From: Betaproteobacteria bacterium
GTDB taxonomy: Bacteria > Pseudomonadota > Gammaproteobacteria > Burkholderiales > SG8-39
Assembly (NCBI GenBank): GCA_016195915.1
Contig: JACPYS010000038.1
Location: forward strand, 136,929 to 200,928
DNA: 64,000 nucleotides
Direction: 5' to 3'
Both the position numbers and the translations under genes were made by a program. Positions 3,569-44,034 of this stretch are shown here, piece after piece. A model generated the notes under the pieces. It made no database searches. It was given only the letters and a program-made list of their open reading frames with translations, and had not been told where the DNA came from. Position 1 is the stretch's first letter, and the number at the start of each line of letters is the position of its first letter.

Positions 3569-5263
3569 TTAATCGGCGCCGGCTGCAGGCTTTCCGCCAC
3601 GCGCCTCGTCGCGCAATGCACGCCGTAGAATCTTGCCGACATTGGTCTTCGGGAGATCGGCCCTGAATTCGAAGTACCGCGGCAGCTTGTAGCCGGTGAG
3701 ATTCCGGCGGCAATGCTCGACGAGGTCTTTTTCGGTCAGCGCCGGATTCTGCTTCACCACGAATACCTTGGGCACTTCGCCCGACTTCTCGTCGGCAACG
3801 CCGATCGCGCAGCACTCGAGCACGCCGGGACAGGCAACCACCACCTCCTCGATTTCGTTCGGGTACACGTTGAACCCGGACACCAGGATCATGTCCTTCT
3901 TGCGGTCGACGATTTTCACGTAACCGCGCTCGTCCATCACGCCGACGTCGCCGGTCATGAACGCGCCGTCCGCCGCCATCACGCGCGCGGTTTCGTCGGG
4001 GCACTTCCAGTAGCCCTGCATGACCTGTGGACCGGAGATGCAGATCTCGCCAGCCTGCCCCGGCGGCAGGACCGCGCCCGCCTCGTCGCGGATCGTGATC
4101 GTCGTGGACGGCACCGGCAGTCCGATCGTGCCCGAGTAGGAGGTGAGGGTCACGGGATTGGTGGTCGCGACCGGGGAAGTCTCTGACAGTCCGTATCCCT
4201 CCAGGATCGGCACTTTCGTCAGATGTTGCCAGCGGTCTGCCACGACCTTTTGCATTGCCATCCCCCCGGCGGTCGCCAAGCGCAGCGCCGAGAAATCGAC
4301 GCTCGCGAAATCGGGGTGATTGAGCAGCGCGGCGTAGAGCGTGTTGAGCCCGGCGATCGCCGTGAAGCGGTTGGCGCGAAGTTCCTTGATGAATCCGGGA
4401 ATGTCGCGCGGATTCGGAATCAGCAGGTTGCAGCCGCCCTCCTTCATCATGAAGAGGCAATTGCAGGTGAGCGCATAGATATGGTAGAGCGGCAACGGCG
4501 CCACCATCACGTGCGGGTTCTTCTCGATGCGCACGGGCGCGAACCACGCCGCAACCTGCTCGAGGTTCGCGATGATGTTGCGGTGCAGGAGCACGGCACC
4601 CTTGGAGACGCCCGTGGTGCCGCCGGTGTATTGCAGGAAAGCGATGTCCTCCGGGCCCAGGTCCGCCACCGGCCGGAGCTGGCAGCCGGCGCCGGAAGCG
4701 AGCATGGCCTTGTACGCGGTCGCGTCCGGCAGCTCGTACGGCGGCACCATCTTCTTCAGCTTGCGCACCACGAAGTTGACGAGCAGGCCCTTGAAGCCGA
4801 GCAGATCTCCCATCGTCGCCACGACCGCGTGGCGCACCTGCGTGCGGGCGATCACCTGTTGCACGGTAGAGGCGAAGTTCTCCAGAACGACAATGGCTTC
4901 CGCGCCCGAGTCCTTGAGCTGATGCTCCAATTCGCGTGGCGTGTACAGCGGGTTGACGTTGACCACGGTGCAACCGGCGCGCAGGATGCCAAAGATCGAA
5001 ACGGGATATTGCAGCACGTTCGGCATCATCACCGCGACGCGCGCCCCTTTGTCGAGACCCTTCGACTGCAGCCACGCGGCGACGTTCCGCGACAACCGGT
5101 CGACCTCGCCGAAGCTGAGGCTCGCGCCCATGCAGCGGTAGGCCTCCCGATCGCGGTACTTGCCGACGCATTCCTCGAACAGATGCGGGATGGAGCGGTA
5201 GGCGTTCGCGTCGATGTCCGCAGGAACGCCGACGGGGTATTGCGCGAGCCAGATTCTCTCCAT
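3569..5263 (-). CDS. fadD: long-chain-fatty-acid--CoA ligase
   Basis: The ORF 3569..5404 was trimmed to the ATG at 5263 (MERIWLAQYPVGVPADID..., FadD-like N-terminus), preceded by GGAGGAGG. AMP-binding motifs YTGGTTGVSKGA and GYGLSE are present. Confidence 0.85.
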   Translation of the reverse strand: MERIWLAQYPVGVPADIDANAYRSIPHLFEECVGKYRDREAYRCMGASLSFGEVDRLSRNVAAWLQSKGLDKGARVAVMMPNVLQYPVSIFGILRAGCTVVNVNPLYTPRELEHQLKDSGAEAIVVLENFASTVQQVIARTQVRHAVVATMGDLLGFKGLLVNFVVRKLKKMVPPYELPDATAYKAMLASGAGCQLRPVADLGPEDIAFLQYTGGTTGVSKGAVLLHRNIIANLEQVAAWFAPVRIEKNPHVMVAPLPLYHIYALTCNCLFMMKEGGCNLLIPNPRDIPGFIKELRANRFTAIAGLNTLYAALLNHPDFASVDFSALRLATAGGMAMQKVVADRWQHLTKVPILEGYGLSETSPVATTNPVTLTSYSGTIGLPVPSTTITIRDEAGAVLPPGQAGEICISGPQVMQGYWKCPDETARVMAADGAFMTGDVGVMDERGYVKIVDRKKDMILVSGFNVYPNEIEEVVVACPGVLECCAIGVADEKSGEVPKVFVVKQNPALTEKDLVEHCRRNLTGYKLPRYFEFRADLPKTNVGKILRRALRDEARGGKPAAGAD

Positions 5264-5422
5264 GAAACGACCTCCTCCCGGTTGATGTTGCAAGCGTCGC
5301 GGCACCCGCAAGGCGAGTGAGGTTAGCCCGATCGCAGCGTAGCCGAAAGGCCGGATTGAGAGGTGGACACCGCCACTCTCATCGGTAACAATTAATGATA
5401 CCAATCACGAAAACGCAGCCCC

Positions 5423-6238
5423 ATGCCTCACTCCGCGGCCTTGCTGGAGGCGCTCAAGCGCGAGCTGCGCGTCCGGCGTATCACCTACGCCCGGGTCGCG
5501 CGCCACCTCGGACTGAGCCTGACCAGCGTCAAGCGCCTGTTTTCCCGCAACGGATTCAATCTGCAGCGCATCGACCGCATCTGCGCGCTGATGGACATCG
5601 AGTTCACCGACCTGGCGCACGTCGCGGTGGCGCGAACCAGCGTGATCTCCCAGCTCAGCTTCGAGCAGGAAAAGGAGTTCGTCGACGATCCCCGGCTGAT
5701 GCTGGTCGCCTGCGCCGCGCTCAGCTACTGGAATCTGGAGCAGATCGTCGAGCACTACGATTTTACCCCCGCCCAGTGCATCCGGCTCCTGGTGAAACTT
5801 GACCGGCTGAAATTCATCGAGCTGGGCGCCAACAACCGGTTCAGGCTGCGCGTCAGCCAGACCTTCTCATGGTTGCCCGACGGTCCCATCCAGCAGCAGT
5901 TCCGCAAGTACATGCAACTTGACTACTTCCGCTCGCGCTTCAACAGCGAGAACGAGCTCATGCTGCAGGTGTTCGGCGCTCTTTCGAAACCGTCACGGGC
6001 CGCGCTGCTGACGAGGTTGAAGCGCCTGGCGCACGAATTCTCTGAAATGAACCGGCAGGATGGCCCTCTGCCGCTCGGCGAGCGCCAGAGCATGACCCTG
6101 CTGCTCGCAGTGCGCCCTTGGGAGCCGCTGCACCTTCGCGCCTTGCGGCGCAAGCGGCCGGAGACGAGACAGGCGGACCGGTCCGGCGCGGCATCGCCGC
6201 CTCACCGCATCGCCGCCGCACCGGGGACCAGGACTTGA
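5423..6238 (+). CDS. helix-turn-helix transcriptional regulator
   Basis: 271-aa ORF. The N-terminal ITYARVARHLGLSLTSVKRLFSRNG is a typical HTH. Divergent from fadD; its stop overlaps the proposed glpD start. Confidence 0.6.
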   Translation: MPHSAALLEALKRELRVRRITYARVARHLGLSLTSVKRLFSRNGFNLQRIDRICALMDIEFTDLAHVAVARTSVISQLSFEQEKEFVDDPRLMLVACAALSYWNLEQIVEHYDFTPAQCIRLLVKLDRLKFIELGANNRFRLRVSQTFSWLPDGPIQQQFRKYMQLDYFRSRFNSENELMLQVFGALSKPSRAALLTRLKRLAHEFSEMNRQDGPLPLGERQSMTLLLAVRPWEPLHLRALRRKRPETRQADRSGAASPPHRIAAAPGTRT

Positions 6239-12135: not shown

Positions 12136-12174
12136 GGGATCGGCCCTCCCGTTAGCGGGCGAGCTGTGGCGTCC

Positions 12175-12750
12175 TTAGTTGGCGGGCGGGCCGGACTCGC
12201 CGCCGACGATCACCCAATCGATTCCGGCTAGGGGAAGGTTTTCAAGCGGGCCGATGAGCGGTTCCAGCGACAGAAAACGGACCGCTGCCGGAACCTGAAG
12301 CAAATGCCGAATACGCGATATCACGCGCGAACTCTCGACGCTCACTCCCATCCACACGTTCGGAGGCCACGGAAGGCGCCGCGACATCGTCGCCAGCCGT
12401 TCCGCCCGATTGGTCAAAATCTGAAACGCGTGACGGGGGCAGTCCTGCATCGTCGCGAACACCCGCGCGATGTAAGTTTCCGGAATGTCCTCGTGAAACA
12501 GGTCACTCATTGAATTCACGAACACCACTCGCGGCTTCCGCCACCATCGCGGAACATCGAGCAGGTCGGGATGAAGCGTGACTCGAAAACCGTCGCGATA
12601 GCGCACGCTGCCCATCGCATGCAGGCGCTTTGCCATGCGCTCCGCATAGCAATTCCTGCAGCCCTGGCTGATCTTCGTGCAACCCGTTACCGGATTCCAG
12701 GTCATCTCGGTCCATTCGATGCTAGATTTCGATCCCATGGGGTGCCTCAA
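12175..12750 (-). CDS. phage Gp37/Gp68 (DUF5131) family protein, apparently 3'-truncated
   Basis: 191 aa. [35 protein letters not shown] (CX6CX2C), [22 protein letters not shown] and [12 protein letters not shown] are the family hallmarks as I recall them. The ORF stops right after GGESGP, where family members normally continue for about 50-60 more aa. Confidence 0.7.
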
Positions 12751-12917
12751 TGATCAGCTTGCGTCCATCCATTGGTACCGAATCCTTTTAAGTCAGCATC
12801 TTAGCCAGCTCGCACCAATATATGTTGTTTTATACAGTAGGTTGACGCGCTCTGCCATCGTGACCGTGCTATTGTTTACCCTGAGGTGAAGATCACTCCC
12901 AGTGGCAGCGCGTACAT

Positions 12918-15107
12918 ATGACTATCGAATCTCGATTTGACGTAACGCTGATTGCCGCTCTTGCACTAAGAGAGAAGCAGATACAGCAAATCTACAGACC
13001 GCTCATCGCCATTCACAAATGGTTCGCCCGCCGTCCGGGTACGCTTTTCCGCGGACTCATCCTTTCCGAGTTTGCCGACAAACCGCTGACGGATACTTTT
13101 TTCAAGGCGAACGACTTCCCCGACCGGAAGATTGCCGATCCCTTCATGGGTGGCGGGACACCATTGATGGAAGCCAATCGGGTGGGTTGCGATGTGTTCG
13201 GATTCGATATTAATCCCATGGCGGCCTGGATCGTCAGAGAGGAGATCGAGCATGTCGATTTACCCGCATATCGCCAGGCGGCAACTCGGCTTCTAACTTA
13301 TCTCGAGCGAGACGTAGGAGCGCTTTATCGAACTGATTGTCCGATCTATGGCGACGAGAACGTGCCAGTCAAGTATTTCCTTTGGGTGAAAGTGCTCGAA
13401 TGTGAGAAATGCCGGCGGAAGGTTGATCTTTTTCCGGGGTATCTGATAGCAGATGACACGCGGCACCCGCGCAACGTGCTGGTATGCGCGAACTGCGGAG
13501 AGTTGAATGAGGTTGGCCGGCTCGATCGTCCAGGCCAATGCCGGGAATGTGGCAAACAACTTTCTGAACATGGCCCAGCGCGCAGAAACGGGTGCGAATG
13601 CCGTCATTGTGGACATTCAAACCGATATCCAAACGCCGCCCTTGGACCAATGCGGCACCGGCTATTCGCCATTGAGTACTTTAATCCGGCGAGGAAGAGC
13701 GCACACAAGGGCCGCTTCTTCAAGAAACCGGACCTCAAGGATCTAGCACGAGCGGCAGAGGCCACGGACCGTTGGAATCGGACCAAGTCGCGCTATGTTC
13801 CAACGGATGTAATTCCGGGTGGTGACGAAACGGACAGATTGCACCGCTGGGGTTACACAAGGTACCGCGAACTTTTTAATGAACGGCAACTCCTCGGGCT
13901 GGAAATCAGCTGCCGCCTTGTCGCGAAAGAGCCGGACGAACGATTGCAAAAGGCGTTGGCCACTAATCTTTCAGACCTACTTCGGTACCAAAACATGCTG
14001 TGTCGGTATGACACAATGGCACTGAAATCGCTCGACATCTTTTCGGTACATGGATTTCCGGTTGGTCTCATTCAGTGCGAATCGAACCTCCTCGGTATTG
14101 TGAACATTAACGGCGCAAATGTCGGTTCCGGCGGGTGGTCAAACATCAGCGAGAAGTACGCCAAGGCTAAGCAATATTGCGATACTCCGTTCGAAGTACG
14201 TCCGGGGGGATCTCGCAAGGTGATCGTTCCAATTCATGGCGAATGGATTGGTGAGCGGATCGATGGCGCGCGTCATCGGACTGTCAAAATCCGATGCCAA
14301 AGCGCAACCTACGCGACTCTTCCGCAAGGAAGTCTCGACGCGGTGTTTACCGATCCCCCCTATTTCGGAAACGTGCAATACAGCGAGTTGATGGACTTCT
14401 GCTACGTCTGGCTGCGGCGACTCACGAAAAGCAGAATCCATGGATTTGAGCAGTTGACGACCCGATCCAAGAATGAGTTGAATGGCAACGCATCACAAGC
14501 GCGCGGCTTGGAACACTTCACGGAGGGCCTTTCGACTGTTTATCGGAAGATGGCTCATGCGCTCAAAGATGGAGCGCCTTTGGCGTTCACCTATCACCAC
14601 AACAAGATTGAGGCGTATCACGCGGTAGGCGTTGCGATCTTGGATGCGGGACTAGTGTGCTCCGCGTCAATCCCGTGTCCCGCGGAAATGGGCGGATCCA
14701 TTCACATCCACGGTACCAACTCTTCGATCGTGGATAGTATTTTTGTCTGCCGAGCCAATCCGCGCATTTCTTCCGCATCACTTTTTGATCGCGTGGATCA
14801 GCTCCTACCGATTGTTCGAGATGAGCTGCGCCAGCTGTGTTCAGCTGGCATGCTTCCGACGACGGGTGACGTGCGCTGCATCGTATTCGGACACCTTACG
14901 CGGATGGCCATTTATCGCCTTAGGACACACTGGGATAGCGCCGGGCCAACGCGACAACGATTGGAACAGTTCTCGCAGGCTGTTGAAGGATTTGGCGATC
15001 CACAGCCCGTTGTCACCCGACTGGCCAAAGAAGTGAGTCGCAAGGCAAGGATACCAACCACCATGCCGTTGTTTGATGGGATAGACAGCGATGCCGTTCC
15101 CGTTTGA
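12918..15107 (+). CDS. DUF1156-type putative DNA (N6-adenine/N4-cytosine) methyltransferase with zinc-ribbon insert
   Basis: 729 aa. HKWFARRPG near the N-terminus, SAM motif I DPFMGGGT and DINP, motif IV DPPY followed by SELMDFCYVWLRR. Four CxxC pairs (CEKC, CANC, CREC, CRHC) lie between motifs I and IV. GC is lower than in the flanks. Confidence 0.75.
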   Translation: MTIESRFDVTLIAALALREKQIQQIYRPLIAIHKWFARRPGTLFRGLILSEFADKPLTDTFFKANDFPDRKIADPFMGGGTPLMEANRVGCDVFGFDINPMAAWIVREEIEHVDLPAYRQAATRLLTYLERDVGALYRTDCPIYGDENVPVKYFLWVKVLECEKCRRKVDLFPGYLIADDTRHPRNVLVCANCGELNEVGRLDRPGQCRECGKQLSEHGPARRNGCECRHCGHSNRYPNAALGPMRHRLFAIEYFNPARKSAHKGRFFKKPDLKDLARAAEATDRWNRTKSRYVPTDVIPGGDETDRLHRWGYTRYRELFNERQLLGLEISCRLVAKEPDERLQKALATNLSDLLRYQNMLCRYDTMALKSLDIFSVHGFPVGLIQCESNLLGIVNINGANVGSGGWSNISEKYAKAKQYCDTPFEVRPGGSRKVIVPIHGEWIGERIDGARHRTVKIRCQSATYATLPQGSLDAVFTDPPYFGNVQYSELMDFCYVWLRRLTKSRIHGFEQLTTRSKNELNGNASQARGLEHFTEGLSTVYRKMAHALKDGAPLAFTYHHNKIEAYHAVGVAILDAGLVCSASIPCPAEMGGSIHIHGTNSSIVDSIFVCRANPRISSASLFDRVDQLLPIVRDELRQLCSAGMLPTTGDVRCIVFGHLTRMAIYRLRTHWDSAGPTRQRLEQFSQAVEGFGDPQPVVTRLAKEVSRKARIPTTMPLFDGIDSDAVPV

Positions 15108-16117
15108 GGTTCCGTTCAGAACGGTTCAGGCAGACCTAGATTTTTATGTCGACGAGATTTTCGCAAGTCTGCAATCCGAATTCTTGATGTTGCCAAAAGG
15201 GCCGGGATTTATCGAGTACCCGGTTTTCGAGCATGGCTACGAGGCGCTCAAGCAAACGACCAATAATTTCCAAAATCTGGCGCCCAAGTCGGTACTAAGA
15301 ACCGTACATAAATCGCCGATAGCCTTCATTGTGCTGCGCGCCCCACACGCCCCCGGAACTCGCCTACGTAACGTCGCAGCGAGGAAAGATCGAGGTGTCG
15401 CAGGGAGCAATTCGGTCGATCGACCGAAAGATCCGGATGGCCCCGCTCACCCAGCTAAGCGCAAGCGGTAGTCTGACCGTGCAACGAATTGAAGCGCTTG
15501 TCGAGACTGCATGCAGGCTCTTAATGGAGGGTGCGCCGAAAGGCCCACCGGATATTCTTCACAGGCTCGACAAGGCGGATACACGAAATGGCCTTAAGAG
15601 CATCCAACCTCTTGCCGACCTTGGCGTTCCGTATGCGATGCTCCTGTACGAGCGATTCCTCGGTCGCCCATTTGCCGGTCACCGTGATTCGGTGAGTGAA
15701 CTGGTCGGGGATGTACTGGAGAGTGCGATTGAGGGCGTTCTCACCGGAGCCAAGGTAAGCTTCCGGAAGACCAAGCGCGCTGAGCGCGTAGCGGGATTCG
15801 ATCAGGCACCGGACTTTATCGTGCCCGATGAATTCAATCCGAAAATTGTGATCGAGGCAAAGATCACCGAGGACGACGGTACCGCACGGGATAAGGTGAC
15901 CCGTGTTCAACATCTTGGATCGCTAAGCATGAAAGGTCGCCGACCGAGTCAAGCGCCTCGATTCGAAGTTGTCGCTTGCATTGCCGGAAGAGGTTTTAAG
16001 GTGCGGCGTGAAGACATGAAGAAACTCCTTCTCGCCACGCGTGGCAAGGTGTTTACGCTTCGAAACCTCGACAGGTTGGTCGCGAGCACCAAGCTCTCAG
16101 AGTTTCGCGTCAGGTAG
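15091..16117 (+). pseudogene. PD-(D/E)xK nuclease-like (restriction endonuclease-like) gene, apparently disrupted by a +1 frameshift near 15341-15354
   Basis: ORF 15091..15471 (frame 1) degenerates into Arg/Pro-rich sequence after ...SPIAFIVLRA. ORF 15329..16117 (frame 2) has only a TTG start just after a stop and reads ...TPPELAYVTSQ... through to APDFIVPDEFNPKIVIEAKITEDDGTARDK. The C4 and C5 runs sit at the junction. The ATG at 15091 overlaps the methyltransferase end by 17 nt. Confidence 0.6.
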
Positions 16118-16269
16118 CCGCGTCCGGCGGCAAGAATCGGACGCGTTCAGCGGCCTCGTGGCATGCGTGATCCTTGATCGTAAGTTGCTGACGTTCCCGA
16201 GCTACGGCGTAAAGTGACAGTCCCCGGCGCCCCTTCAGCAGGCGCCTGATTTCGTCCGCGCTGGACCGC

Positions 16270-16920
16270 TCAGCGGCGAGTTGACCGGCGCGCTCTAGAT
16301 TTTCGAGGTTGTTCTTGCCGGAGGTCGTTCAGTGTGTGCTCGTCGCCGATCAACCGGATCTTCGGACCATTGAGAATGGCGCTGATGAAATGATGCTGCC
16401 CACGAATCATTGAGCCGAACTCGCGGACGGAGTAACTGACAAGCGAGATCTTCCGTCCAAGCCGGTCGCTCAACCCGGCGAGCGGCACGGCGAGTTCGGA
16501 TGGTGGCAGGTCGTCGGCCACGAGAAGCACATCGATGTCGCTGGTTGCGTGGGCCGTTCCCTTTGCAATCGATCCATAGACAAAGGCCAATCGCACACGG
16601 TCCTTGAATTGGGCCAGCCCTTCGCGCAGGACATCGGCGATGCCGAATGTCTTCGTCACGATTCCAAGCAACTCCTCATAAATCGACGCCTCGGGGTTCG
16701 CGTGGAAATGCACCTGGTTTGCGCACCGCTCGCGCAGAACAAGACCGGCGCCCACGAGCTGCTCCAGCTCCTTTTGAACCTGGCTTATGCCGGTGCCGGA
16801 CCAGGAAACAATCTCTCGCAAATAAAACGTCTTGCCCGGCTGTCCAAATAGCAGCGCGAGCACATTGCGGCGCGTCTTTCCGAACAGCGCGATTGCGAGA
16901 TCTGTCTGGGCAGAATTCAT
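16270..16920 (-). CDS. winged-HTH (ArsR/MarR-like) plus nucleotidyltransferase (MNT-like) fusion protein
   Basis: 216 aa. N-terminal RRNVLALLFGQPGKTFYLREIVSWSGTGISQVQKELEQLVGAGLV (wHTH). Central FVYGSIAKGTAHATSDIDVLLV (GS-x10-DxD NTase motif). Confidence 0.75.
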   Translation of the reverse strand: MNSAQTDLAIALFGKTRRNVLALLFGQPGKTFYLREIVSWSGTGISQVQKELEQLVGAGLVLRERCANQVHFHANPEASIYEELLGIVTKTFGIADVLREGLAQFKDRVRLAFVYGSIAKGTAHATSDIDVLLVADDLPPSELAVPLAGLSDRLGRKISLVSYSVREFGSMIRGQHHFISAILNGPKIRLIGDEHTLNDLRQEQPRKSRARRSTRR

Positions 16921-16931
16921 CCAACAAAAAT

Positions 16932-16971
16932 CGTACCTTATTTCGGTACGATCGTACCGTTTTCAGGTACG
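16932..16971. promoter_or_regulatory. tandem palindromic operator-like site upstream of the wHTH-NTase gene
   Basis: CGTACC-N7-GGTACG occurs twice (16932-16950 and 16953-16971), with centres 21 bp apart, 12-51 bp upstream of the ATG at 16920. Confidence 0.55.
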
Positions 16972-17036
16972 CCCTCGCTCCCCCCGTTTACCGATGCGGC
17001 GCACAAGTCAGCGCGATCGAAAACCGAGTGGCTGCG

Positions 17037-17804
17037 TCAGACCTCGATCTCTTCCGGCGGCACCACCACGACCTTGCCGTCTCGCCAAGTCACAATCGGA
17101 ATTCCGAGCGCCTTGTGGCGCGCGAGCGCCTCGCGACCTGCACGGTCGAAGATCTCCATCACCTCGCTAATGGGAATCCCCGCGAACCGCGGTTCTGCTC
17201 CGGTCTCGTATTGCGTTTCTTTCTCTTTCGTCTGCATGTGGCCCTGAACGGTTTCCCAAAGTTCCGGATTGGAGATGTGAATCGGCCGACTTCCGTCCCT
17301 CATGGCAATCAGCTTCGGTGGCGGCGAGCTATTCTCATGCATCTCCCAGGAGTCGGCAATCGGCAAATAAAGCCGGAAGAAATTGGCGATCCCGCGTTCG
17401 TAGCGCCGCCGGATATCGCCAGGCGGCACGGAATGGCCGCCATGACGCACGCGCCCGGCCACCCGTTGCACCGCCGTCTCAGCGTCCGGAATCCAGAGGA
17501 ATGCGAGATGGAACCGGTAGCCGTGCGCGCTCCTCAGTTGCGCGATCCAGGGCGCGAAGCTGCGGCTCGCAAGCGTGGTTTCAAACGCGAAGTCCTTCCC
17601 CTCGTCCGCCAGTTGCCGAACCCGCTTCAGCATGATCCGCCCGGCTTCCAGGGCTACGGTCTCCGGAGAGAAAGCCAAGAGGCCGGCGGCAATGACGTCC
17701 GCGTTCACGAACTCCGCGATACCCAGGCGCCTCCCGATGAGCAATGGCGCCGCGGTCGATTTTCCCGCGCCGTTCGGCCTCGCGATCACGATGAGATTCG
17801 GCAT
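17037..17804 (-). CDS. zeta-toxin/COG4185-like P-loop ATPase with extra C-terminal domain
   Basis: 255 aa. Walker A ARPNGAGKST, FVNADVIA, FAFETTLASR, RVRHGGHSVP and IRRRYERG are typical of the zeta-like kinase family. The last ~70 aa (…REALARHKALGIPIVTWRDGKVVVVPPEEIEV) resemble the small partner protein of such ATPases. Confidence 0.7.
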   Translation of the reverse strand: MPNLIVIARPNGAGKSTAAPLLIGRRLGIAEFVNADVIAAGLLAFSPETVALEAGRIMLKRVRQLADEGKDFAFETTLASRSFAPWIAQLRSAHGYRFHLAFLWIPDAETAVQRVAGRVRHGGHSVPPGDIRRRYERGIANFFRLYLPIADSWEMHENSSPPPKLIAMRDGSRPIHISNPELWETVQGHMQTKEKETQYETGAEPRFAGIPISEVMEIFDRAGREALARHKALGIPIVTWRDGKVVVVPPEEIEV

Positions 17805-19310
17805 TCAGCCCTCGAACACCGGCCCCAACGGCCGCATCCGCACACCCTTTCTAAGCTTCGTCCACTTGAACTCCGACGGATCGGCGAGCGCGGGGCCGGG
17901 CGAGCGCACCACCAGCACCTGCTTCGCGATCGGCTGAAAATCCGCCCGAAAGTGCACCGAACTCTTCAACGCCAGCATGCGCTCGCGCCGTGGCTCCACG
18001 CCGAGGTGGCGGAACATCTCCTGGTCGGCGGCCTGGCATTTCTTTGACGCGAGCAGCACGCGCACGCCGGGCGCAGCACGGCTGCGCAGCAGCGCCATGG
18101 GACCGAGGGTCATGCGAAATCCCTTGAACATCGGCCCGCTGCAGATGAATTTCCCGTCCCCCAGGCGCTCGACCGAGAACTCGCCCTCGAACGGCGCGTC
18201 GCCCGGGACGCGCGAGCGCCCGCCCAGTGCGAACGCCAGCGTCACGCCCTGTCCGGCTTCGTGCGCCCGCGCCGCGGCGGCGGGATCGATCAAAAGCCCG
18301 AGCGCAGCGTCCTGCGCGTTGTGCCGCACCAGCGCCGCGAGCAGACCCGTGGTATCGCCGTTGCCGCCGGCGCCGGGATTGTCCTGCGTATCGGCCATGA
18401 CTACGGGAGCGCCCGGCGCGCCGTATTCCCGCGCCCGGCGCACCGCCTCGTCCGGCGTGTGCAGTTCCAGCGCGAAGTCGCTCTCGGCGCCATCGATGCG
18501 CTCGCGCAGTTCTTCCACCGAGCGTGTCACCGCCTTCGCATCCGCCCCGTAGCCGAACACCGCCATGCCGCACTCGTGGAAATCGGCCATCGGAAAACCC
18601 GGCGTGAACGAAAGCGAAGCGCCGTCACGCATCTCGAGTTCGCCGAGCGCGGCGTAGATGCTGTGGCAGGGCTCGATGAAGGAGCACTGCGACGGGATTC
18701 CCGTGAGGTAGTCGAAGGTCCGCATCGCCGATGGCAGGCGCGCGCCGGATCTCAGCGTCGCATCGAGCAGGCGCGCCGCGCGCGCGCCGGTCTCGGCCAT
18801 GTCTACGTGCGGGTAGGTGCGATACGCCACCATGGCGTCGACGCGCTCGAACATCGCGCGGGTCACATTCGCGTGCAGATCGAGGCTCGCCACGATCGGA
18901 ACGCGCGGCCCCACCGCCTCGCGCACACGGCGCAACAGTTCGCCTTCGCCGTCGTCGAACCGATCGGTGACCATCGCGCCGTGCAGATCGAGATAGACCG
19001 CGTCCACGCTGCCGGCGCTCTTCAACCGCTTCACGATCTCGCCTGCAATCCGCTCGAACGCCTCATGCGTCACCTGCGCCGACGGGCTCGCCGCCGCCCA
19101 GGCAGTGGCGACGAGCGTATGACCCATCGCGCGCAATGCCTGAATCGCACCCTCGGCGGGAATGTTGGCGCCCTGCACGGCGTCGAACAACGGATCGCCG
19201 AACTGCACGCCGGGCCAACCGCCGCCGGCCTCGAAGGCGGTGTAGTCCGCCAGCGACGGCGCGAACGTATTTGTCTCGTGCTGAAAACCTCCGATCGCAA
19301 CGCGCGCCAC
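17805..19310 (-). CDS. M81 family metallopeptidase (MlrC-like)
   Basis: 501 aa. MARVAIGGFQHETNTFAPS is the classic MlrC N-terminus. C-terminal MlrC_C-like region. Confidence 0.85.
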   Translation of the reverse strand: MARVAIGGFQHETNTFAPSLADYTAFEAGGGWPGVQFGDPLFDAVQGANIPAEGAIQALRAMGHTLVATAWAAASPSAQVTHEAFERIAGEIVKRLKSAGSVDAVYLDLHGAMVTDRFDDGEGELLRRVREAVGPRVPIVASLDLHANVTRAMFERVDAMVAYRTYPHVDMAETGARAARLLDATLRSGARLPSAMRTFDYLTGIPSQCSFIEPCHSIYAALGELEMRDGASLSFTPGFPMADFHECGMAVFGYGADAKAVTRSVEELRERIDGAESDFALELHTPDEAVRRAREYGAPGAPVVMADTQDNPGAGGNGDTTGLLAALVRHNAQDAALGLLIDPAAAARAHEAGQGVTLAFALGGRSRVPGDAPFEGEFSVERLGDGKFICSGPMFKGFRMTLGPMALLRSRAAPGVRVLLASKKCQAADQEMFRHLGVEPRRERMLALKSSVHFRADFQPIAKQVLVVRSPGPALADPSEFKWTKLRKGVRMRPLGPVFEG

Positions 19311-29762: not shown

Positions 29763-30139
29763 GGCCGGAACTGCCGCGCCTTGAGCGGCAGATGCTCTGC
29801 CACCATCGCCGCAAGCCGCTCGGCGCGCACCGGCTTGGTGAGATAACCGACCGCGCCGAGTTCCTTGCCGCGGCCATTGCCATCGGTCACGGAAGTGAGA
29901 AAGATCACCGGGATCTCCGGCAAGGTCCGGTCCGACTTCAGCGCGGAGATGAACTCGAAACCGTCCATGTACGGCATCATGACATCGGTGATGATCATGT
30001 CGGGCGGGCTCTCGAGCACCCTGTGGCCCGCCTCGATCGCATCCTTGGCGATCTGCACCTGGTAGCCGTGCGAGGTGAGGTGCAGCTTCAGCAGCTCGAG
30101 CAGGCTTTCGTCGTCATCGACGATCAGGATGGTGGCCAT
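29759..30139 (-). CDS. single-domain response regulator (CheY-like receiver)
   Basis: 126 aa. MATILIVDDDESLLELLK..., ITDVMMPYMDGFEF (phospho-acceptor Asp) and GAVGYLTKP. Confidence 0.85.
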   Translation of the reverse strand: MATILIVDDDESLLELLKLHLTSHGYQVQIAKDAIEAGHRVLESPPDMIITDVMMPYMDGFEFISALKSDRTLPEIPVIFLTSVTDGNGRGKELGAVGYLTKPVRAERLAAMVAEHLPLKARQFRP

Positions 30140-30197
30140 AGGGCGGACGCGGACTCGGGTATCGGCGCATTTCGGCGCCTGACTCGGCGTCGGATCC

Positions 30198-30273
<76 letters not shown>

Positions 30274-30418
30274 GTTAAAAGATAAATTTTACGCCGAAAC
30301 GCGCCCCCTTCCAAGAACCGGACCTGCGGGATGCGCTCAGAAATCTTCTGGAATTTGCCGCGGGTGGAAATGGAAACCCCGCCGGTGCGAGGACCGTATG
30401 AGCGCTGCCAGAAGACGG

Positions 30419-31180
30419 CTAGTTCACTTCCCGTTGCCGGCGACGCCGGGCGGCGAAACCCATTAAACCAAGGCTCGCCAGCAGCATCGCGCAGGGCTCC
30501 GGCTCGGGAACGGACGCAACCATCCCCTGCGCGTCGTGCGAGAACGGGGCGAAACTGTTGACGTCGACATCGCCATTCGTGCAATTCTTGGCTTTCCCGC
30601 AGACGCTAATGATCTCGTTATAGAGATCGAAGTGGAGGCCGTAGCCCGCCGCGAGACCCGCGAGATTGAAATCGAATCGCTCGTAATACATCCCGGCACC
30701 TGCCTGCGGCCCCCAGCCGGCATGATCCTGCGTGTTATACACGCCGGACTGGTTAGTCGAAGGCGTAGAGAATGTAAATTGTTTCTCGGCGAAGTAGGTC
30801 GGGAAGATGTCGTGCGTGGGCAAGTCACCCGGATCGAACCCCTGCAGAGACGAAAGCGCTTCGATCGGCGCGGTGCCGTAGGTCATACCGCTCGTCACGC
30901 TGACCGGCGTGCCATTGATCGTGAAGGAGCCGAAATTTCCGGGTGAACTCACGGCTGGCAGCAACGCCATCGAAAGGAAGAACTTTGCCGTAGTCGAGAC
31001 GCCCGTCCCGTAGGCATAAAGCGAGAAGCTATTGCCAGACGCCATGATCGTTTGCGTGACGGCGTCGTAAGTCCCACCGGCAATGTCCAACTGCAGCATC
31101 GGCACCGCATGGGCCGGCGCTCCGGCAAGCATGCCCGCCACCACGATTGGCGCAAGTGCGAATTTCTTGGTTATGTTCAC
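30419..31180 (-). CDS. PEP-CTERM sorting domain-containing secreted protein
   Basis: 253 aa. Signal peptide MNITKKFALAPIVVAGMLAGAPAHA. C-terminal VPEPEPCAMLLASLGLMGFAARRRR (PEP motif, TM helix, Arg cluster). Confidence 0.85.
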   Translation of the reverse strand: MNITKKFALAPIVVAGMLAGAPAHAVPMLQLDIAGGTYDAVTQTIMASGNSFSLYAYGTGVSTTAKFFLSMALLPAVSSPGNFGSFTINGTPVSVTSGMTYGTAPIEALSSLQGFDPGDLPTHDIFPTYFAEKQFTFSTPSTNQSGVYNTQDHAGWGPQAGAGMYYERFDFNLAGLAAGYGLHFDLYNEIISVCGKAKNCTNGDVDVNSFAPFSHDAQGMVASVPEPEPCAMLLASLGLMGFAARRRRQREVN

Positions 31181-31298
31181 GTAGGAGTTTCTCTGTCGTT
31201 AGCCAACCCGGCTGCCATAAATTCCATTTCGCGTTGGCCCAGTATGTATCACCACCCGCAAAATTTCTGTTAACGAATGTTGCTAGCTGTCATCGCCG

Positions 31299-31325
31299 AA
31301 AAAACAAACCCCGCGGCAACGGGGT
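31299..31325 (-). terminator. rho-independent terminator after the second PEP-CTERM gene
   Basis: On the minus strand: stem ACCCCG/CGGGGT with a 6-nt loop, followed by TTTGTTTTTT, 27 nt downstream of the stop at 31352. Confidence 0.7.
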
Positions 31326-31351
31326 CTGCGTAAGTGGTGCTGAGGGCGAAA

Positions 31352-32041
31352 CTACGCACCTTGTTCCTGCATCCTGCGCCTGCTGAATCCGAGTGCGAAG
31401 AGGCCCAGGCCGAGAAGGGCGAGAGAGGCGGGTTCGGGAACGTTACGATTGAAGGTCAGGTCGTCAAGGACCGAGAACGACCCGCTCCAGCGAACGGCAA
31501 AAATGTCGCTCGTCGCGTGGCTGATGCCGCGGAACGCGCCGGCGTTCAGCCCGCTGGGGGTGCTGATGGCAGCCTCCGCGCCGATATCGTGCGACTCGAG
31601 AACGTTGCTTAGGGCGTCAAGAACCTCCAGACGCGCGACGCCGTTGCCAGGAGCGTAATTGACGAACGCCCCGACATCGGAAACGGCGCCGGCCGCGAAC
31701 GTGAACGTCATGAAACTGGTACTGGAGTTGTCGCCCACGTAGCCGTTACGGCCGCTGTTCCAGGTACCATTGCCCCCCAGCCCGAAACCACCGTTATAGA
31801 CGGACGCACCGTTGAACCCCGGAGTGCCTGTGAACGTGACGGTTTCGCCAACCAGCCCGCCCACGTTGAGCGGCCCCTGGCATCCAGCGGCCGCGAAACC
31901 GCCGCAGGTCGCGGCGAATTGGGAGAAATCAATGACCGACGGGCTCGTAAAGCCGACATTGGTCGTAATCAGCGTCGCCGCGGCCTGGCCCGCCCATAGT
32001 CCGCTCGCCACCAACATGCTTGCAATCAATTGTCGCTTCAT
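31352..32041 (-). CDS. PEP-CTERM sorting domain-containing secreted protein
   Basis: 229 aa. Signal peptide MKRQLIASMLVASGLWAGQAAA. C-terminal VPEPASLALLGLGLFALGFSRRR. Confidence 0.85.
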   Translation of the reverse strand: MKRQLIASMLVASGLWAGQAAATLITTNVGFTSPSVIDFSQFAATCGGFAAAGCQGPLNVGGLVGETVTFTGTPGFNGASVYNGGFGLGGNGTWNSGRNGYVGDNSSTSFMTFTFAAGAVSDVGAFVNYAPGNGVARLEVLDALSNVLESHDIGAEAAISTPSGLNAGAFRGISHATSDIFAVRWSGSFSVLDDLTFNRNVPEPASLALLGLGLFALGFSRRRMQEQGA

Positions 32042-32399
32042 GGCTCTCTCCTTCTTTCCACATCACGATGACCAAGGCCAAGAAGCAGCCTGTTGAGTTC
32101 AATCTCTAAGCATGAATTGGGCCCGTATGCCATAACGTGTTGTTTTTATTATTCTCTGTCTTCAGAGAGGCGGGCGTGTCGGGGCGACGCCGAGAAGAAT
32201 GTAAAGTTTTTCGACAGAAATTCAGTCCGGTTGGCTAGTTAGCTACGCGGGCTTCACGCTCACGTAGTCGTTCTGAAATCGGACTCCAAAGCACAGCGCT
32301 ACTAAAATCACGTCGCGAGGCAGTGCGCCCATTCCCGCGTTACGCACTCCTCGAGTGCCGCGACAAAATCAGGTGCGGCTGGGGCTTGAACGATGGGAT

Positions 32400-33062
32400 T
32401 CACGGGCCGTCGGCGCCCGAGTCGCGCGGCGTGAACTCAATCTCGACAAGCTTCCTGCTTTTGACCGGCCGCCCCGACTTCATCGCGGGCGAAAACCGTG
32501 TTTCGCGCGCTGCCTGCACCGCGACCTGCTCGAAATAACCCGGAGGATCGGCCCAGCCCAAAATCACGTCGTCGACGCTCCCATTCTCGTTGATCAGCAG
32601 CATCAGAACGACTTTTCCGGAGATCCCCTCCAGGAATGCCTGCTCCGGATACTCCAGCATCACATCGTTGATTGGATCCGCTCGCACGTCTACGGCGCTG
32701 GCCGGCAGATAAATATCGGGGATCGGCGGCGAAAAGGCGATCAGCGGCCGTGCGATGCCCGGGCCCGCGGGCGGCGATGCCCGGCGCACGTCGGACGGAC
32801 TGCGGGCTTGCAGATCCGTCGCGGGCGACGGGACGGGCTGCGGTTGCCCGGGCGGGGTATCGGCAATTGGCAGGGCGGCGCTTGCCGGCGGCACTGCGCG
32901 CGCCGGCAGTTCGACCAGCGCTGCTGCCAGCCGCGCAGAGAATTTCCATCCCTGGCTGAACCCCTTTCCCAAGGGTGGATTGAGCCAGACAATCGCGAGC
33001 GTATGCAAGCAAAGTGAAGCCACCAACGCTCCGGCGAGACGTTGCCCGGATCGTGCATTCAT
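32400..33062 (-). CDS. TonB C-terminal domain protein (TonB-like)
   Basis: The track ORF was trimmed to the ATG at 33062 to avoid overlap with pilY1. N-terminal TM LAGALVASLCLHTLAIVWL, a Pro-rich middle, and C-terminal LEYPEQAFLEGISGKVVLMLLINENGSVDDV...FSPAMKSGRPVKS (TonB_C). Confidence 0.7.
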   Translation of the reverse strand: MNARSGQRLAGALVASLCLHTLAIVWLNPPLGKGFSQGWKFSARLAAALVELPARAVPPASAALPIADTPPGQPQPVPSPATDLQARSPSDVRRASPPAGPGIARPLIAFSPPIPDIYLPASAVDVRADPINDVMLEYPEQAFLEGISGKVVLMLLINENGSVDDVILGWADPPGYFEQVAVQAARETRFSPAMKSGRPVKSRKLVEIEFTPRDSGADGP

Positions 33063-40819: not shown

Positions 40820-41245
40820 TTACCACTTGCCGTCGCCGGCCGAGCGCGTCTTGGCGCCCGCGCTGGTCAAGGTGAGGTTGCCATCACTCACCTGAGAACT
40901 CAGGGCGGTCGCGACCACGTTATATCCGGGCGGCGGGCCGTTAACCAGTGTCACCGCGACGGAATAGAAAGTATTGGTACACGTGGTTCCGGAGCATGTC
41001 CAGCCGTTGGCGCTGGCCATCGGGATGCCGCTGCCGGCGGCGGTGAGCGCCGTCGTATAGGTACGCGCGTCGAGCACGTACTGCTCTTCCTTGTTCTGTA
41101 TATCGAGCATCAACTGCGCCGCGTCGGCGCGCCGGGCCTTGGTCGTATAGTAGCTGTAGGATGGGATCGCGATCCACGCGAGGATCGCGATCACTGCCAC
41201 GACCATCATCAGTTCGACAAGCGTAAATCCGCGCGATTTCGGCAT
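40820..41245 (-). CDS. pilE: type IV pilin (PilE-like)
   Basis: ATG at 41245 after GGGAGA. MPKSRGFTLVELMMVVAVIAILAWIAIPSY is a class III signal peptide with Glu at +5. Confidence 0.8.
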   Translation of the reverse strand: MPKSRGFTLVELMMVVAVIAILAWIAIPSYSYYTTKARRADAAQLMLDIQNKEEQYVLDARTYTTALTAAGSGIPMASANGWTCSGTTCTNTFYSVAVTLVNGPPPGYNVVATALSSQVSDGNLTLTSAGAKTRSAGDGKW

Positions 41246-41799
41246 TTCAGTCTCCCAATGGTTGCGAATGCTAGTCGCTCGACGGGGCTGGTGCACCGCG
41301 CGCGCGACGGCGGGTCGATATTAGACGATGGACGGCGGGGCAGACGCATCAGGACGTGATTTTTTTCACGTTCGGTTTCCGGACCGCGCGCCTCACACGC
41401 AGCTTCGGGGCCGGAGTAACAGATGCCGTCGCCGCGCAGGCCGCGCGATGGCGATCCCGGGAAAATGCGCGTTGAGCGGTTGGGCACCACGGAGATAGCC
41501 GGCATCTTGACGACCTATTCCGCCTGACGCGTGCCGCCCGAGGCTTTGGCGCATCGTGCCATGGATCTCGAGGCGTCCGCGGTGGCCGATCGAGCACCGC
41601 GGTGCGCGCGACCTTGAATCTGCCTGGCGCGAAGATTACCGAGGCGATTAACGCGAAAGGATAAGTGCGTGGCTCGCCCGCGTATCGATCGTTCACGGCA
41701 GCGACACACGGCAGAGACAATGTTGATATTAAATGCAGAAAGCGGCACGATGGTTCCTGCACTCGCGGGCAAGAATGGTGCTCCCCGAGGAGGTGAACT

Positions 41800-42828
41800 G
41801 TGAAACTGCTGTCGCTTCTTTTTCTTTGCATTGCGATGATGCTGCGCGCTGGAGCGACCTGGTCAGGCGCATTCGAAGATGGCGTCGCTGCGCAAAAGGA
41901 CGGTGACTACGCGAATGCTTTGAAAATATTCGGGTCGCTCGCGGCACAAGGGGACGCGCGAGCGCAATACAATCTTGCGCTGATGTATGCACACGAGCGA
42001 GGTGTTGCGCGCGACTATCCAGAAGCACTCAAGTGGTTTCATCTGGCAGCAGCACAGGGAATCGCCAGTGCACAATATAATCTTGGCGTGATGTACGAGA
42101 ACGGCCTCGGCGGGGCGCGGAATCACTCTCAGGCGCTCAAATGGTATCGACTGGCAGCAGCTCAAGGCGATGCTGACGCGCAATACAATCTTGCCTTAAT
42201 TTATGAGAGGGGGCGAGACGTTAAGCAGGACTATGCTCAGGCGCGCAAGTGGTTTCAGCTGGCGGCGGCGCGAGGGCTTGCGCAGGCGCAATTCAATCTC
42301 GGCGTGATGTATGCGGAGCGGCGCGGGGGTGCACAGGATTACGCAGGAGCGCTCAAGTGCTATCGGCTGGCCGCAGCGCAGGGGCTTGCGGCGGCACAAT
42401 ACAATCTAGGCATGATGTACGCCAACGGTCGAGGCGTTGCGCAGGACCATGCTGAAGCGGTCAATTGGTATCGACTGGCAGCCGAGCGGGGGGACGCGTA
42501 CGCGCAATACAATCTCGGCCTGATGTATAAAAATGGAAGGGGAATCGCACAGGACTATGTGCAAGCGCTCAAGTGGTTGAGGCTGGCAGCAACGCAGGGG
42601 ATTACGGGAGCCCAATATAATCTCGGCTTGATGTTTGCAGAGGGGCAAGGGGTCGGGCAGCATGACGTTCGCGCTTACATGTGGATCGATCTGGCCGCCG
42701 AATCGGGCAACGCAAATGCGGGCAGGGTTCGCGACATCATCGGAAAGCGAATGACACCACAGCAAGTCGCCGAAGCGCGGAAGAGCGCGAGTGACTGTCG
42801 GTTGCGCAATATCAAGGGATGTGAGTGA
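41800..42828 (+). CDS. Sel1 (SLR) repeat protein, secreted
   Basis: GTG start after GAGGAGG. Signal peptide, then about 8 tandem 36-aa units of the type AQYNLGVMYENGLGGARNHSQALKWYRLAAAQGDA. Confidence 0.85.
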   Translation: MKLLSLLFLCIAMMLRAGATWSGAFEDGVAAQKDGDYANALKIFGSLAAQGDARAQYNLALMYAHERGVARDYPEALKWFHLAAAQGIASAQYNLGVMYENGLGGARNHSQALKWYRLAAAQGDADAQYNLALIYERGRDVKQDYAQARKWFQLAAARGLAQAQFNLGVMYAERRGGAQDYAGALKCYRLAAAQGLAAAQYNLGMMYANGRGVAQDHAEAVNWYRLAAERGDAYAQYNLGLMYKNGRGIAQDYVQALKWLRLAATQGITGAQYNLGLMFAEGQGVGQHDVRAYMWIDLAAESGNANAGRVRDIIGKRMTPQQVAEARKSASDCRLRNIKGCE

Positions 42829-43036
42829 GAGTCGAAATTATTTCTCTACTGCTCACCCGCTTGATGATAATCGGCGAGGCGGTCACATCTGATTTGAATT
42901 GAATTGGTTCGCGAGCCGAAAGGAGTAGATCTGCCTCGATTGGAGCGCGTATGCGATCAGCGGCACCGCCACAAACGCGCTCGCGGCAATCGCCGGTCCG
43001 GCGTAATTCGCGCCTCACGAACTCGACCGGCGCCCC

Positions 43037-43312
43037 GTGCCCCTGTCTTCCATCGAGCCGGAGTTTCCGGAACTTCGCCCGCACGACGAAGGCCATCTGG
43101 TGGTGCGCGTGCTGATCAACGAGCACGGGCGCGCCGACCAGGTCCAGCTACTGGTCTCGGACCCCGAACGAAAATTCGACCGCGCCGTCATCGACGCCTT
43201 CTCCGCGGGCCAGTACCAGCCGGGCATCAAGGACGGCGTGTCCGTGAAAAGCCAGTTTCTCGTCGAGGTGAAATTCCATCCCGAGGGCGCGCCGCCGGGG
43301 CCGGTAAGGTAG
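43037..43312 (+). CDS. TonB C-terminal domain-only fragment
   Basis: 91 codons from a GTG. PEFPELRPHDEGHLVVRVLINEHGRADQVQLLVSDPERKFDRAVIDAFSAGQYQPGIKDGVSV is TonB_C-like. An in-frame TAA lies 13 codons upstream, so there is no TM or Pro-rich part. Confidence 0.45.
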   Translation: MPLSSIEPEFPELRPHDEGHLVVRVLINEHGRADQVQLLVSDPERKFDRAVIDAFSAGQYQPGIKDGVSVKSQFLVEVKFHPEGAPPGPVR

Positions 43313-43390
43313 CTGAAAGTCTCACCGAAAAATGCGGCCTTGAGAGTATAGGGCTTTACGCACCCCATACCGCAGGGCACAATACGTCAC

Positions 43391-43669
43391 ATGAAGGCGC
43401 GCCTTATCGTTCGGATCAAGGAAGCCTATGGGCACGGTTCGGTTGAGGGCGTAGTTTGGGAGGTACCCGCGCCGGCGCAGCCGTCGACGCATCGCATCAA
43501 GTATCGCCTGGTCTATTTGGTCGGCGGCGAGCGCGTGGTGGGGTACGACAACGAGCGCGGCAAGGGTGATCACAAGCACATCCGCGGAACGCAAGCAGCT
43601 TATGCCTTCAAGGATGTGCCGACGCTGATCCGCGATTTTTTGCAGGACGTGCAGGAGACTGAATCATGA
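43391..43669 (+). CDS. TumE-family (DUF6516) toxin-like protein
   Basis: 92 aa. VWEVPAPAQPSTHRIKYRLVYLVGGERVVGYDNERGKGDHKHIRG matches my recollection of the family. ATGA overlap with the next gene. Confidence 0.65.
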   Translation: MKARLIVRIKEAYGHGSVEGVVWEVPAPAQPSTHRIKYRLVYLVGGERVVGYDNERGKGDHKHIRGTQAAYAFKDVPTLIRDFLQDVQETES

Positions 43670-44034
43670 GTGTGCTGGAAGTACGAATTGGGGAAGAAAT
43701 CAAGACGAGTCTTGCGCGGTTTGGACAGACGCTGTCAGCTGCAAAAGCCGGCAAGAAAGTGAAACCGTATTTCGGCATCGGCTTTCGCACCATGGCGCAA
43801 TTCGGCGAGGTGTTCACCCCGAAGCGCTGGGAGCTGGTGGAGTCCCTGAAAGCCTCCGGACCGCTGACGATCTACGCCCTTGCCAAGCGCCTCGGGCGCC
43901 ATTACCGCAACGTGCACAAGGATGTTACCGCCATGATCGAATGGACGGTGATCGAGAAGGACGATGCCGGACGGGTGTTCGTGCCATGGGATGAAATCGA
44001 CGTACGCTGGCCATTGCTCAGGCACGCGGCTTGA
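43666..44034 (+). CDS. HTH DNA-binding partner (TumA/HVO_A0114-like antitoxin)
   Basis: 122 aa. TPKRWELVESLKASGPLTIYALAKRLGRHYRNVHKDVTAMIEW is a winged HTH. Coupled to the preceding gene. Confidence 0.6.
   Translation: MSVLEVRIGEEIKTSLARFGQTLSAAKAGKKVKPYFGIGFRTMAQFGEVFTPKRWELVESLKASGPLTIYALAKRLGRHYRNVHKDVTAMIEWTVIEKDDAGRVFVPWDEIDVRWPLLRHAA

Follow-up and report, generated by a model that had tools for sequence, protein, structure and literature searches.

The DNA analyzed here is a stretch of 64,000 nucleotides (nt) from a contig of a Betaproteobacteria bacterium (JACPYS010000038.1, positions 136,929 to 200,928; hereafter the window). It carries the gene of a putative DNA methyltransferase of 729 amino acids (aa), followed on the same strand by the remains of a second gene, referred to below as the partner. 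With a probability of about 0.8, this locus carries one copy, now in decay, of a self-contained restriction-modification (R-M) module that consists of two genes and is of a Type II-like kind. Such a kind of system is known, while the families to which its components belong are uncharacterized. An earlier note on this DNA, made from the sequence alone, had described the pair as a compact R-M-like variant that fitted no named system. Both parts of this proposal were upheld: the two genes occur together as a conserved module in no fewer than 61 genomes, the partner superfamily lies nearly always beside a DNA methyltransferase, and the partner was not recognized in Pfam, NCBIfam or PADLOC scans.

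Conservation of the two-gene module

The neighborhood survey that had been suggested was carried out on one genome per species. At least 563 stretches were found to encode relatives of the methyltransferase, and the best 80 (59–75% identical) were taken; they span Alpha-, Beta-, Gamma- and Deltaproteobacteria, Acidobacteriota, Binatia, Latescibacterota, Nitrospirota, Gemmatimonadota, PVC, Spirochaetia, Synechococcus and the archaeon Methanoculleus. The set analyzed comprised 82 loci, namely the window, L001, L003 and 79 loci of the scan (L006–L084); L002 and L005 were left out as duplicates of L001. Six of the 82 were uninformative because the contig edge was too close, leaving 76.

An intact partner was observed directly downstream of the methyltransferase in 61 of these 76 loci, across more than 15 phyla. 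In 11 loci, the window included, the partner was broken at varying points, and in the remaining four it was absent; in loci of this last class no substitute nuclease was evident. Of the 61 intact pairs, 55 showed a gene overlap of exactly 17 nt, and the methyltransferase open reading frame (ORF) was uninterrupted everywhere except in locus L058. Cultured hosts of an intact pair include Paracoccus aerius KCTC 42845, Siccirubricoccus phaeus 1-3, Imhoffiella purpurea AK35 and Ostreiculturibacter nitratireducens FR2A1. When the ORFs within ~5–6 kb were clustered over 80 loci, no neighbor recurred except a GmrSD gene, found in eight, and neither DUF499, DUF3780 nor a helicase was recurrent. The absence of DUF499 and DUF3780, already pointed out from the sequence, was likewise found in the low-GC islet that surrounds the pair in the window, where every gene was scanned and neither a DUF499 (HmaC) ATPase nor a Snf2/DUF3883 helicase was detected. 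Moreover, the flanks of L001, whose methyltransferase is 75% identical, are unrelated to those of the window. The pair is therefore a conserved, self-contained two-gene module. The strict synteny and the lack of any other conserved neighbor support the restriction reading, and the asymmetric decay, with the partner broken or absent in 15 loci and the methyltransferase open in all but one, is what would be expected of a toxic nuclease and a protective methyltransferase. The adjacency typical of Type II R-M genes was found in 61 of 76 loci of the close family and in 61 of 65 loci of the wider nuclease superfamily described below.

The GmrSD genes (DUF262/DUF1524, type IV restriction) lie just downstream of the module in the eight loci mentioned (e.g., L043, 9207–10910). 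On an 8-kb Tabrizicola plasmid (L085), a compact methylase is followed by a DUF262 gene and a HEPN nuclease. These GmrSD, DUF262 and HEPN neighbors point to an association with defense islands.

The partner gene is broken in the window

The start codon of the partner and its overlap with the methyltransferase stop were as first reported (Table 1). The frame opened by this start had also been said to reach the nuclease core, and this proved wrong: it stops at 15469–15471 after 126 codons, and the core lies in a different frame, listed as an ORF at 15329–16117. A tblastn search with an intact homologue (P0121) returned two pieces, 15091–15342 and 15347–16114, with codons 1–84 in the first frame and codons 89–344 in another. 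The lesion was located by alignment to L003, a sequencing run of a related organism that is syntenic with the window from 12622 to 18812; its methyltransferase is 95% identical, and its partner is intact, with 344 aa and the same 17-nt overlap. A net deletion of 8 bp falls in a conserved helix, LR-x-x-LG-x-TPPE (LRAMLGFTPPE), in which R83 is invariant and G87 nearly invariant in the partner superfamily. The window partner gene is thus a pseudogene.

The ratio of nonsynonymous to synonymous substitution rates (dN/dS) between the window and L003 was 0.18 for the methyltransferase, in which every family-invariant residue is kept, and 0.11 for the partner. Since both values are low, both genes were under purifying selection until recently, and the frameshift is recent. 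Programmed frameshifting was considered as a rescue of the broken gene and judged less likely than decay, the partner being broken in 10 other loci with varying truncated lengths.

A compact relative of DUF1156 methyltransferases

The 729-aa ORF and its motifs HKWFARRPG, DPFMGGGT and DPPY were all present where the earlier note had placed them. The first is invariant in 24 of 24 homologues, and five of its residues (H33, K34, A37, R39 and G41) stay unchanged even at 27–30% identity. In motif I, which binds S-adenosylmethionine (SAM), D74, P75, F76, G78, G79 and G80 are invariant in the 24 close homologues and in the distant ones. The Pfam profiles N6_N4_Mtase and D12 and the CcrM profile matched the stretches of motif I and motif IV separately, and the protein combines a SAM motif I with the (D/S)PPY that marks amino-methyltransferases.

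The assignment to the DUF1156 type held in part. Pfam DUF1156 (PF06634) matched residues 11–58 with 20.7 bits and E 4.5e-4, below its gathering score of 24, and N6_N4_Mtase reached 23.8 bits against a gathering score of 26.7. By contrast, significant partial matches were obtained with the PADLOC models HmaB, PglX and DUF1156_MTase (E 1e-23 to 1e-26) and with NCBIfam DUF1156_antiphage (NF042963; E 1.7e-30, 105.9 bits in three partial stretches, the cut-off being 1000). Considering these sub-threshold and partial scores, the protein is a distant, compact relative of the DUF1156/BREX-related N6-adenine methyltransferases and stands outside the curated anti-phage equivalog DUF1156_antiphage. Some close homologues have a precomputed PF06634 match and the NCBI name ‘DUF1156 domain-containing’ and the window protein falls below threshold, so the compact family lies at the edge of this model. 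Homologues of about 730 aa numbered more than 5000 at E ≤ 0.001; the best 120 measure 703–748 aa and are 65–75% identical, apart from one at 95%. No match was obtained when the methyltransferase was searched by tblastn against phage genomes.

The four pairs of cysteines described between motifs I and IV were confirmed, and every Cys of the cluster is invariant in 24 homologues of 65–75% identity. This segment is predicted to be the zinc-ribbon part of a target-recognition insert. In the AlphaFold model, residues 141–250 form short beta-hairpins with mean predicted local distance difference test (pLDDT) values of 53–89 per block of 10 residues. The model is poor overall (pLDDT 58, core below 50) and did not justify a fold search; it shows a single helical bundle, at 626–709, and its quality does not allow domains to be counted.

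The relatives of 27–30% identity are plasmid-borne and include a DUF499-linked Haloplanus gene (878 aa) and a Klebsiella gene that has HerA and SNF2 genes as neighbors. The window protein, the Haloplanus protein and two compact plasmid relatives were aligned. C190/C193 and C208/C211 are invariant throughout this alignment. In the Haloplanus protein the first pair is likewise a CxxC, and its fourth site is a CxxC (TCPDCG) offset by two alignment columns, with only C228 in common. Its C-terminus is ~110 alignment columns (~108 residues) longer than that of the window protein. Since the Cys pairs are present, or nearly so, in this DUF499-linked relative, the Cys-rich insert is ancestral to the methyltransferase clade and the four-CxxC segment is not special to the compact form, whose special feature is its short C-terminus.

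Additionally, plasmids of Tabrizicola (L085, 1543–4493) and Acidiphilium (L086, 4129–7112) encode another compact DUF1156-like methylase of 708–722 aa, 29% identical, preceded by an overlapping gene for a 272–275-aa protein without a Pfam match. This upstream protein was compared with the partner and rejected as a homologue (hhalign E 0.88). The arrangement may represent a second compact pairing of this methylase clade.

The partner resembles PD-(D/E)xK nucleases

The intact partner of 344 aa has ~6000 homologues, all unnamed, 70–80% identical and without a Pfam domain. An exhaustive search of cluster representatives gave 926 at E ≤ 0.001, counted as clusters at 50% identity, many of whose representatives are fragments. 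No P-loop or helicase domain was found in the 344-aa protein by profile scan, and none is encoded nearby.

The nuclease core reported by the earlier note as PDFIVPD and IEAK was found at its coordinates, with a spacer of seven residues instead of nine. Across 27 members with identities down to 26%, E258 and K260 are invariant, P243 and D244 are nearly invariant, and the D-x-G-T-A-R-D-K that follows the core is likewise conserved. The order E, PD, (D/E)xK is that of the superfamily motif. The AlphaFold model places E213 on a helix (203–222), D244 just before a strand (245–247), and E258 and K260 on a second strand (255–261), followed by a helix (268–283) and a strand (295–301). A helix-strands-helix-strand layout with these residues is the usual PD-(D/E)xK arrangement. 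The N-terminal half is helical, with a stretch resembling a helix-turn-helix (HTH).

Sub-threshold but repeated profile matches among the 27 members were to families with nuclease names, TPD (14 members), PDDEXK_11 (five) and EcoRII-C (three). The best viral match in Foldseek was a putative endodeoxyribonuclease I (E 0.012, probability 1.00, TM 0.51 on the target), and further matches were to restriction endonucleases, DUF2726, VRR-NUC and resolvases; the weak list of PDB structures includes EcoT38I, MspJI, McrC and Bse634I. Neither the sequence nor the profile built from 27 members had a meaningful match among PDB chains; a sigma-factor HTH came out best (E 0.097). On the basis of motif conservation and of these weak fold and profile matches, the partner is predicted to be a nuclease of the PD-(D/E)xK superfamily.

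Five of the 120 closest partner homologues (P0155, P0176, P0177, P0189 and P0194; loci L090 and L091) are 517–521 aa long and end in a C-terminal Peptidase_S24 domain (LexA/UmuD-like). In P0155 the linker includes VAAG, similar to the site at which LexA is cleaved, and the S24 domain contains GKSMEP and VKRY, a possible Ser/Lys dyad. A GmrSD gene adjoins the S24-fused partner. This fusion hints at an SOS/RecA-triggered processing of the restriction enzyme.

Pairing with two methyltransferase architectures

Distant homologues of the partner were collected from a plasmid, viral contigs and metagenomes, and 65 loci had enough upstream sequence. A beta-class methyltransferase of ~300 aa was observed directly upstream on the same strand in 51 of them, a DUF1156-type methyltransferase in 10 (divergently oriented in L174 and L175), and neither type in four. 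The beta-class enzymes match Pfam N6_N4_Mtase with E 1e-35 to 1e-38, have TSPPY as motif IV, and their nearest solved structure is M.PvuII. The N-terminal domain of the partner (R83, G87, E92, R161, D166, R191) is kept in both contexts. Being nearly always beside a methyltransferase, and pairing with two unrelated architectures, the partner behaves as a restriction endonuclease would. The presence of its conserved N-terminal domain in both contexts suggests that it recognizes DNA by itself, and argues that the nuclease does so without borrowing the recognition insert of the large methyltransferase.

A sister branch of the nuclease superfamily (L097–L099, L004, L100–L179) is abundant in metagenomes, unannotated and uncharacterized. 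Its members were observed on contigs of metagenomes and viruses and on a plasmid of Microbacterium. This branch couples a partner-like nuclease of ~370 aa to a TSPPY methyltransferase similar to M.PvuII. As in the module, the nuclease lies directly downstream of the methyltransferase; it is homologous over its full length (26–30% identity) and has the same E, PD, ExK and DxGTARDK. In contrast, the methyltransferase has ~300 aa and is of the permuted beta class with a TSPPY typical of N4-cytosine enzymes, and the genes abut without the 17-nt overlap. The sister-branch methyltransferases are probably N4-cytosine specific.

The low-GC islet

In the window, the module lies in a ~5.6-kb islet of five genes, low in guanine plus cytosine (GC), between flanks of ordinary metabolic genes (Table 1). 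A search of the islet boundaries for flanking direct repeats, a tRNA or an integrase found none, and a promoter scan gave no signal above chance.

Table 1. Features of the module and of the surrounding islet, in window coordinates.
Feature	Position	Strand	Evidence or remark
Low-GC islet	~12150–17800		54–59% GC per 1-kb window vs 63–70% in flanks
DUF5131 gene, C-terminally truncated	12175–12750	minus	Pfam and PADLOC matches
Methyltransferase ORF, 729 aa, intact	12918–15107	plus	ORF listing, profile matches, homologues, dN/dS
HKWFARRPG	13014–13040	plus	Marks the DUF1156-like helical element at the N-terminus; Pfam match residues 11–58
Motif I (SAM binding), DPFMGGGT	13137–13160	plus	Matches motif-I end of N6_N4_Mtase, D12 and UPF0020 profiles
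Cys cluster C162/C165, C190/C193, C208/C211, C226/C228/C231	13401–13613	plus	CEKC, CANC, CREC, C-x-C-RH-C
Motif IV (catalytic), DPPY, then SELMDFCYVWLRR	14352–14363	plus	Invariant in close and distant relatives; matches DPPY end of CcrM and HmaB, PglX profiles
17-nt overlap, methyltransferase end and partner start	15091–15107	plus	ATG 15091 vs stop 15105–15107
Partner pseudogene	15091–16117	plus	Broken downstream gene
Net 8-bp deletion site	15340–15346 (after 15342)	plus	DNA alignment to L003; causes premature stop 15469–15471
E213 codon	15719–15721	plus	Acidic residue on helix before nuclease beta-sheet; nearly invariant in 27 members
Nuclease core PDFIVPD-x7-IEAK (P243-D244 ... E258-A-K260), then DDGTARDK	15809–15862	plus	Conservation in 27 members
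Winged HTH (wHTH)-nucleotidyltransferase	16270–16920	minus	
Zeta-toxin-like P-loop kinase	17037–17804	minus	

The DUF5131 gene (phage Gp37/Gp68-like) matches Pfam with E 1.5e-77 and PADLOC PDC-M41B with E 1e-92, covering only positions 1–188 of the 243 of the profile; its truncation is at the left edge of the islet, adjoining an amidase gene that ends at 12135, and it is not kept beside the methyltransferase in other loci. The wHTH-nucleotidyltransferase is MntA-like (PADLOC PDC-M05A, E 1.4e-67) and is neighbored by the zeta-toxin/AAA_33-like kinase. In L003, ~500 extra bases (5209–5714) contain a gene for a dnstrm_HI1420 ‘antidote’, which is missing from the window. The islet is a mosaic, since its kinase is only 71% identical to that of L003 and its methyltransferase 95%. 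A 22-nt imperfect palindrome (82% complementary; 16932–16971) was found in the 116-nt gap between nucleotidyltransferase and kinase, overlapping a terminator-like hairpin on the minus strand. Elsewhere in the window, GC dips to ~0.58–0.61, against ~0.66, at 30001–33000, adjoining a tRNA-Thr gene (30198–30273, minus), and at 41001–44000, with a strong positive GC skew. Both may be further acquired islets.

Proposed mechanism and alternative explanations

In the mechanism proposed, the ~730-aa enzyme, laid out as DUF1156-like N-terminal helices, SAM motif I, a recognition insert bearing the zinc ribbon and DPPY, would methylate a specific DNA sequence, presumably at adenine N6 because of its DPPY and its kinship to the HmaB and BREX-related enzymes. 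The partner would be translated from its start 17 nt inside the methyltransferase end, and this overlap, by translational coupling, would tie nuclease synthesis to methyltransferase synthesis. With a helical, HTH-like domain at its N-terminus and a PD-(D/E)xK domain (E213, D244, E258, K260) at its C-terminus, the partner would cut the same sequence when unmethylated and be kept from doing so by methylation, with no ATPase or helicase involved. In the window, the net 8-bp deletion would recently have killed the nuclease gene and left an orphan methyltransferase, which may still mark the host genome.

Several points weigh against this reading. The partner matched no PD-(D/E)xK or restriction-enzyme model at its curated threshold (TPD, PDDEXK_11, EcoRII-C and DpnII all stayed below), Foldseek returned no match at E ≤ 0.001, and the AlphaFold model of the partner is only moderately confident (pLDDT 77.6). 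The 8-bp deletion could be an assembly error. In L058 (6001–8094) a methyltransferase with an internal stop lies beside an intact partner, which could be a sequencing error in a metagenome-assembled genome or a counter-example to the toxic-nuclease expectation. Finally, the conserved 17-nt overlap could reflect the need for a methylase-nuclease complex. An obligate complex of a Type III/Type IIS-like kind, in which the insert of the methyltransferase recognizes DNA and a nonspecific small nuclease cuts only when docked, is considered unlikely. The near-universal overlap (55/61) would suit coupled translation and a fixed stoichiometry, the recognition insert of ~330 aa is as in the BREX-related methylases of multi-protein complexes, and the N-terminal half of the partner matches no recognized DNA-binding family; however, the same partner superfamily, with this N-terminal domain kept, pairs with small TSPPY methyltransferases that have no insert, and the DUF1156-type methylase is divergently oriented in L174 and L175.

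Overlapping methylase and nuclease genes are also known from dcm-vsr, and the partner might accordingly be a repair or housekeeping nuclease accompanying an epigenetic regulator, the more so as 20% of the loci keep the methyltransferase without the nuclease, showing that the methyltransferase is tolerated, and perhaps useful, alone. We regard this as very unlikely, because Vsr repair addresses the deamination of 5-methylcytosine and the enzyme here has the DPPY of an amino-methyltransferase. The patchy spread of the pair (59–75% protein identity over more than 15 phyla and an archaeon), its low-GC islet, the pairing of the partner with two unrelated methylase architectures and the nearby GmrSD genes in eight loci fit mobile defense better. 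It is hardly credible, in turn, that the pair is part of an islet-wide system with the DUF5131 fragment, the nucleotidyltransferase and the zeta-like kinase. The five genes share the low-GC islet and stand in the same order in L003, and PDC-M41B and PDC-M05A are defense-candidate models of PADLOC; yet ORF clustering over 80 other loci kept none of these neighbors, which were rejected as system members for this reason, the flanks of L001 are unrelated, and the islet edge cuts the DUF5131 gene short.

More ambitiously, the module might connect classical Type II R-M with the BREX-related/Hma systems as a missing link. A BREX-type methyltransferase with a large zinc-ribbon recognition insert would then act together with a plain PD-(D/E)xK nuclease, perhaps guiding it, in the absence of an ATPase or helicase. 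The near-universal overlap would reflect an obligate complex, and the S24-fused variant would add SOS-triggered control. This is a rather unlikely extension of the Type II-like reading.

Occurrences of the pair number in the hundreds among species-level genomes and in the thousands among metagenome clusters, with 59–75% identity across phyla, yet the partner is annotated only as ‘hypothetical protein’ and the methyltransferase as ‘DUF1156 domain-containing’ or ‘putative DNA methylase’. Standard tools would not call it a system, since the PADLOC models match the methyltransferase alone and a nuclease is named by neither Pfam nor NCBIfam. Should the Type II-like reading be correct, annotation pipelines could gain a superfamily of restriction endonucleases that comprises ~900 clusters at 50% identity (E ≤ 0.001), it would follow that DUF1156/BREX-type methyltransferases work in a minimal, ATPase-free setting, and an enzyme of likely single specificity would become available for characterization. 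These results would be useful for annotation and enzyme discovery and would not surprise a specialist, and the window copy is a remnant only.

Comparison with known systems

The canonical context of DUF1156 consists of a DUF499 ATPase, a DUF1156 N6-methyltransferase and a Snf2/DUF3883 helicase-nuclease (PMC11232893; bioRxiv 10.1101/2025.10.09.681413). Like HmaB and the Type-1 BREX-related methylases, the window protein has an HKW(F/W)ARR element, motif I, a long Cys-rich insert and then DPPY, and the identity of 27–30% with plasmid-borne BREX-related examples, the DUF499-linked Haloplanus gene included, extends over ~90% of the length. As the earlier note had indicated, the window protein is shorter, with 729 aa against 878 aa in Haloplanus and 944–973 positions in the HmaB, DUF1156_MTase and DUF1156_antiphage profiles, and it lacks the C-terminal extension of the Haloplanus relative. 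Whereas the Hma and BREX-related systems include a DUF499 ATPase and a helicase, and a Snf2/DUF3883-type helicase stands beside the distant relatives on the Klebsiella and Haloplanus plasmids, the window islet and the 80 loci are without DUF499, DUF3780 or a helicase, and the effector would be a stand-alone nuclease of 344 aa.

Among restriction enzymes, one sister-branch member matched the C-terminal half of the DpnII profile (PF04556; E 3.4e-4, 20.4 bits). This match is below the gathering score of 23. It was obtained for one sister-branch member out of 14 and for none of the set of 27, which hints at remote kinship only. In comparison with orthodox Type II R-M systems such as PvuII, the methyltransferase of the module is more than twice the usual size and of a BREX-related clade, its nuclease matches no restriction model of Pfam, NCBIfam or PADLOC, and it has no controller gene. 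The module nevertheless resembles these systems in its co-oriented operon, with the methyltransferase before the nuclease, in a PD...(D/E)xK nuclease without an ATPase domain, in its horizontal movement and in its decay to an orphan methyltransferase.

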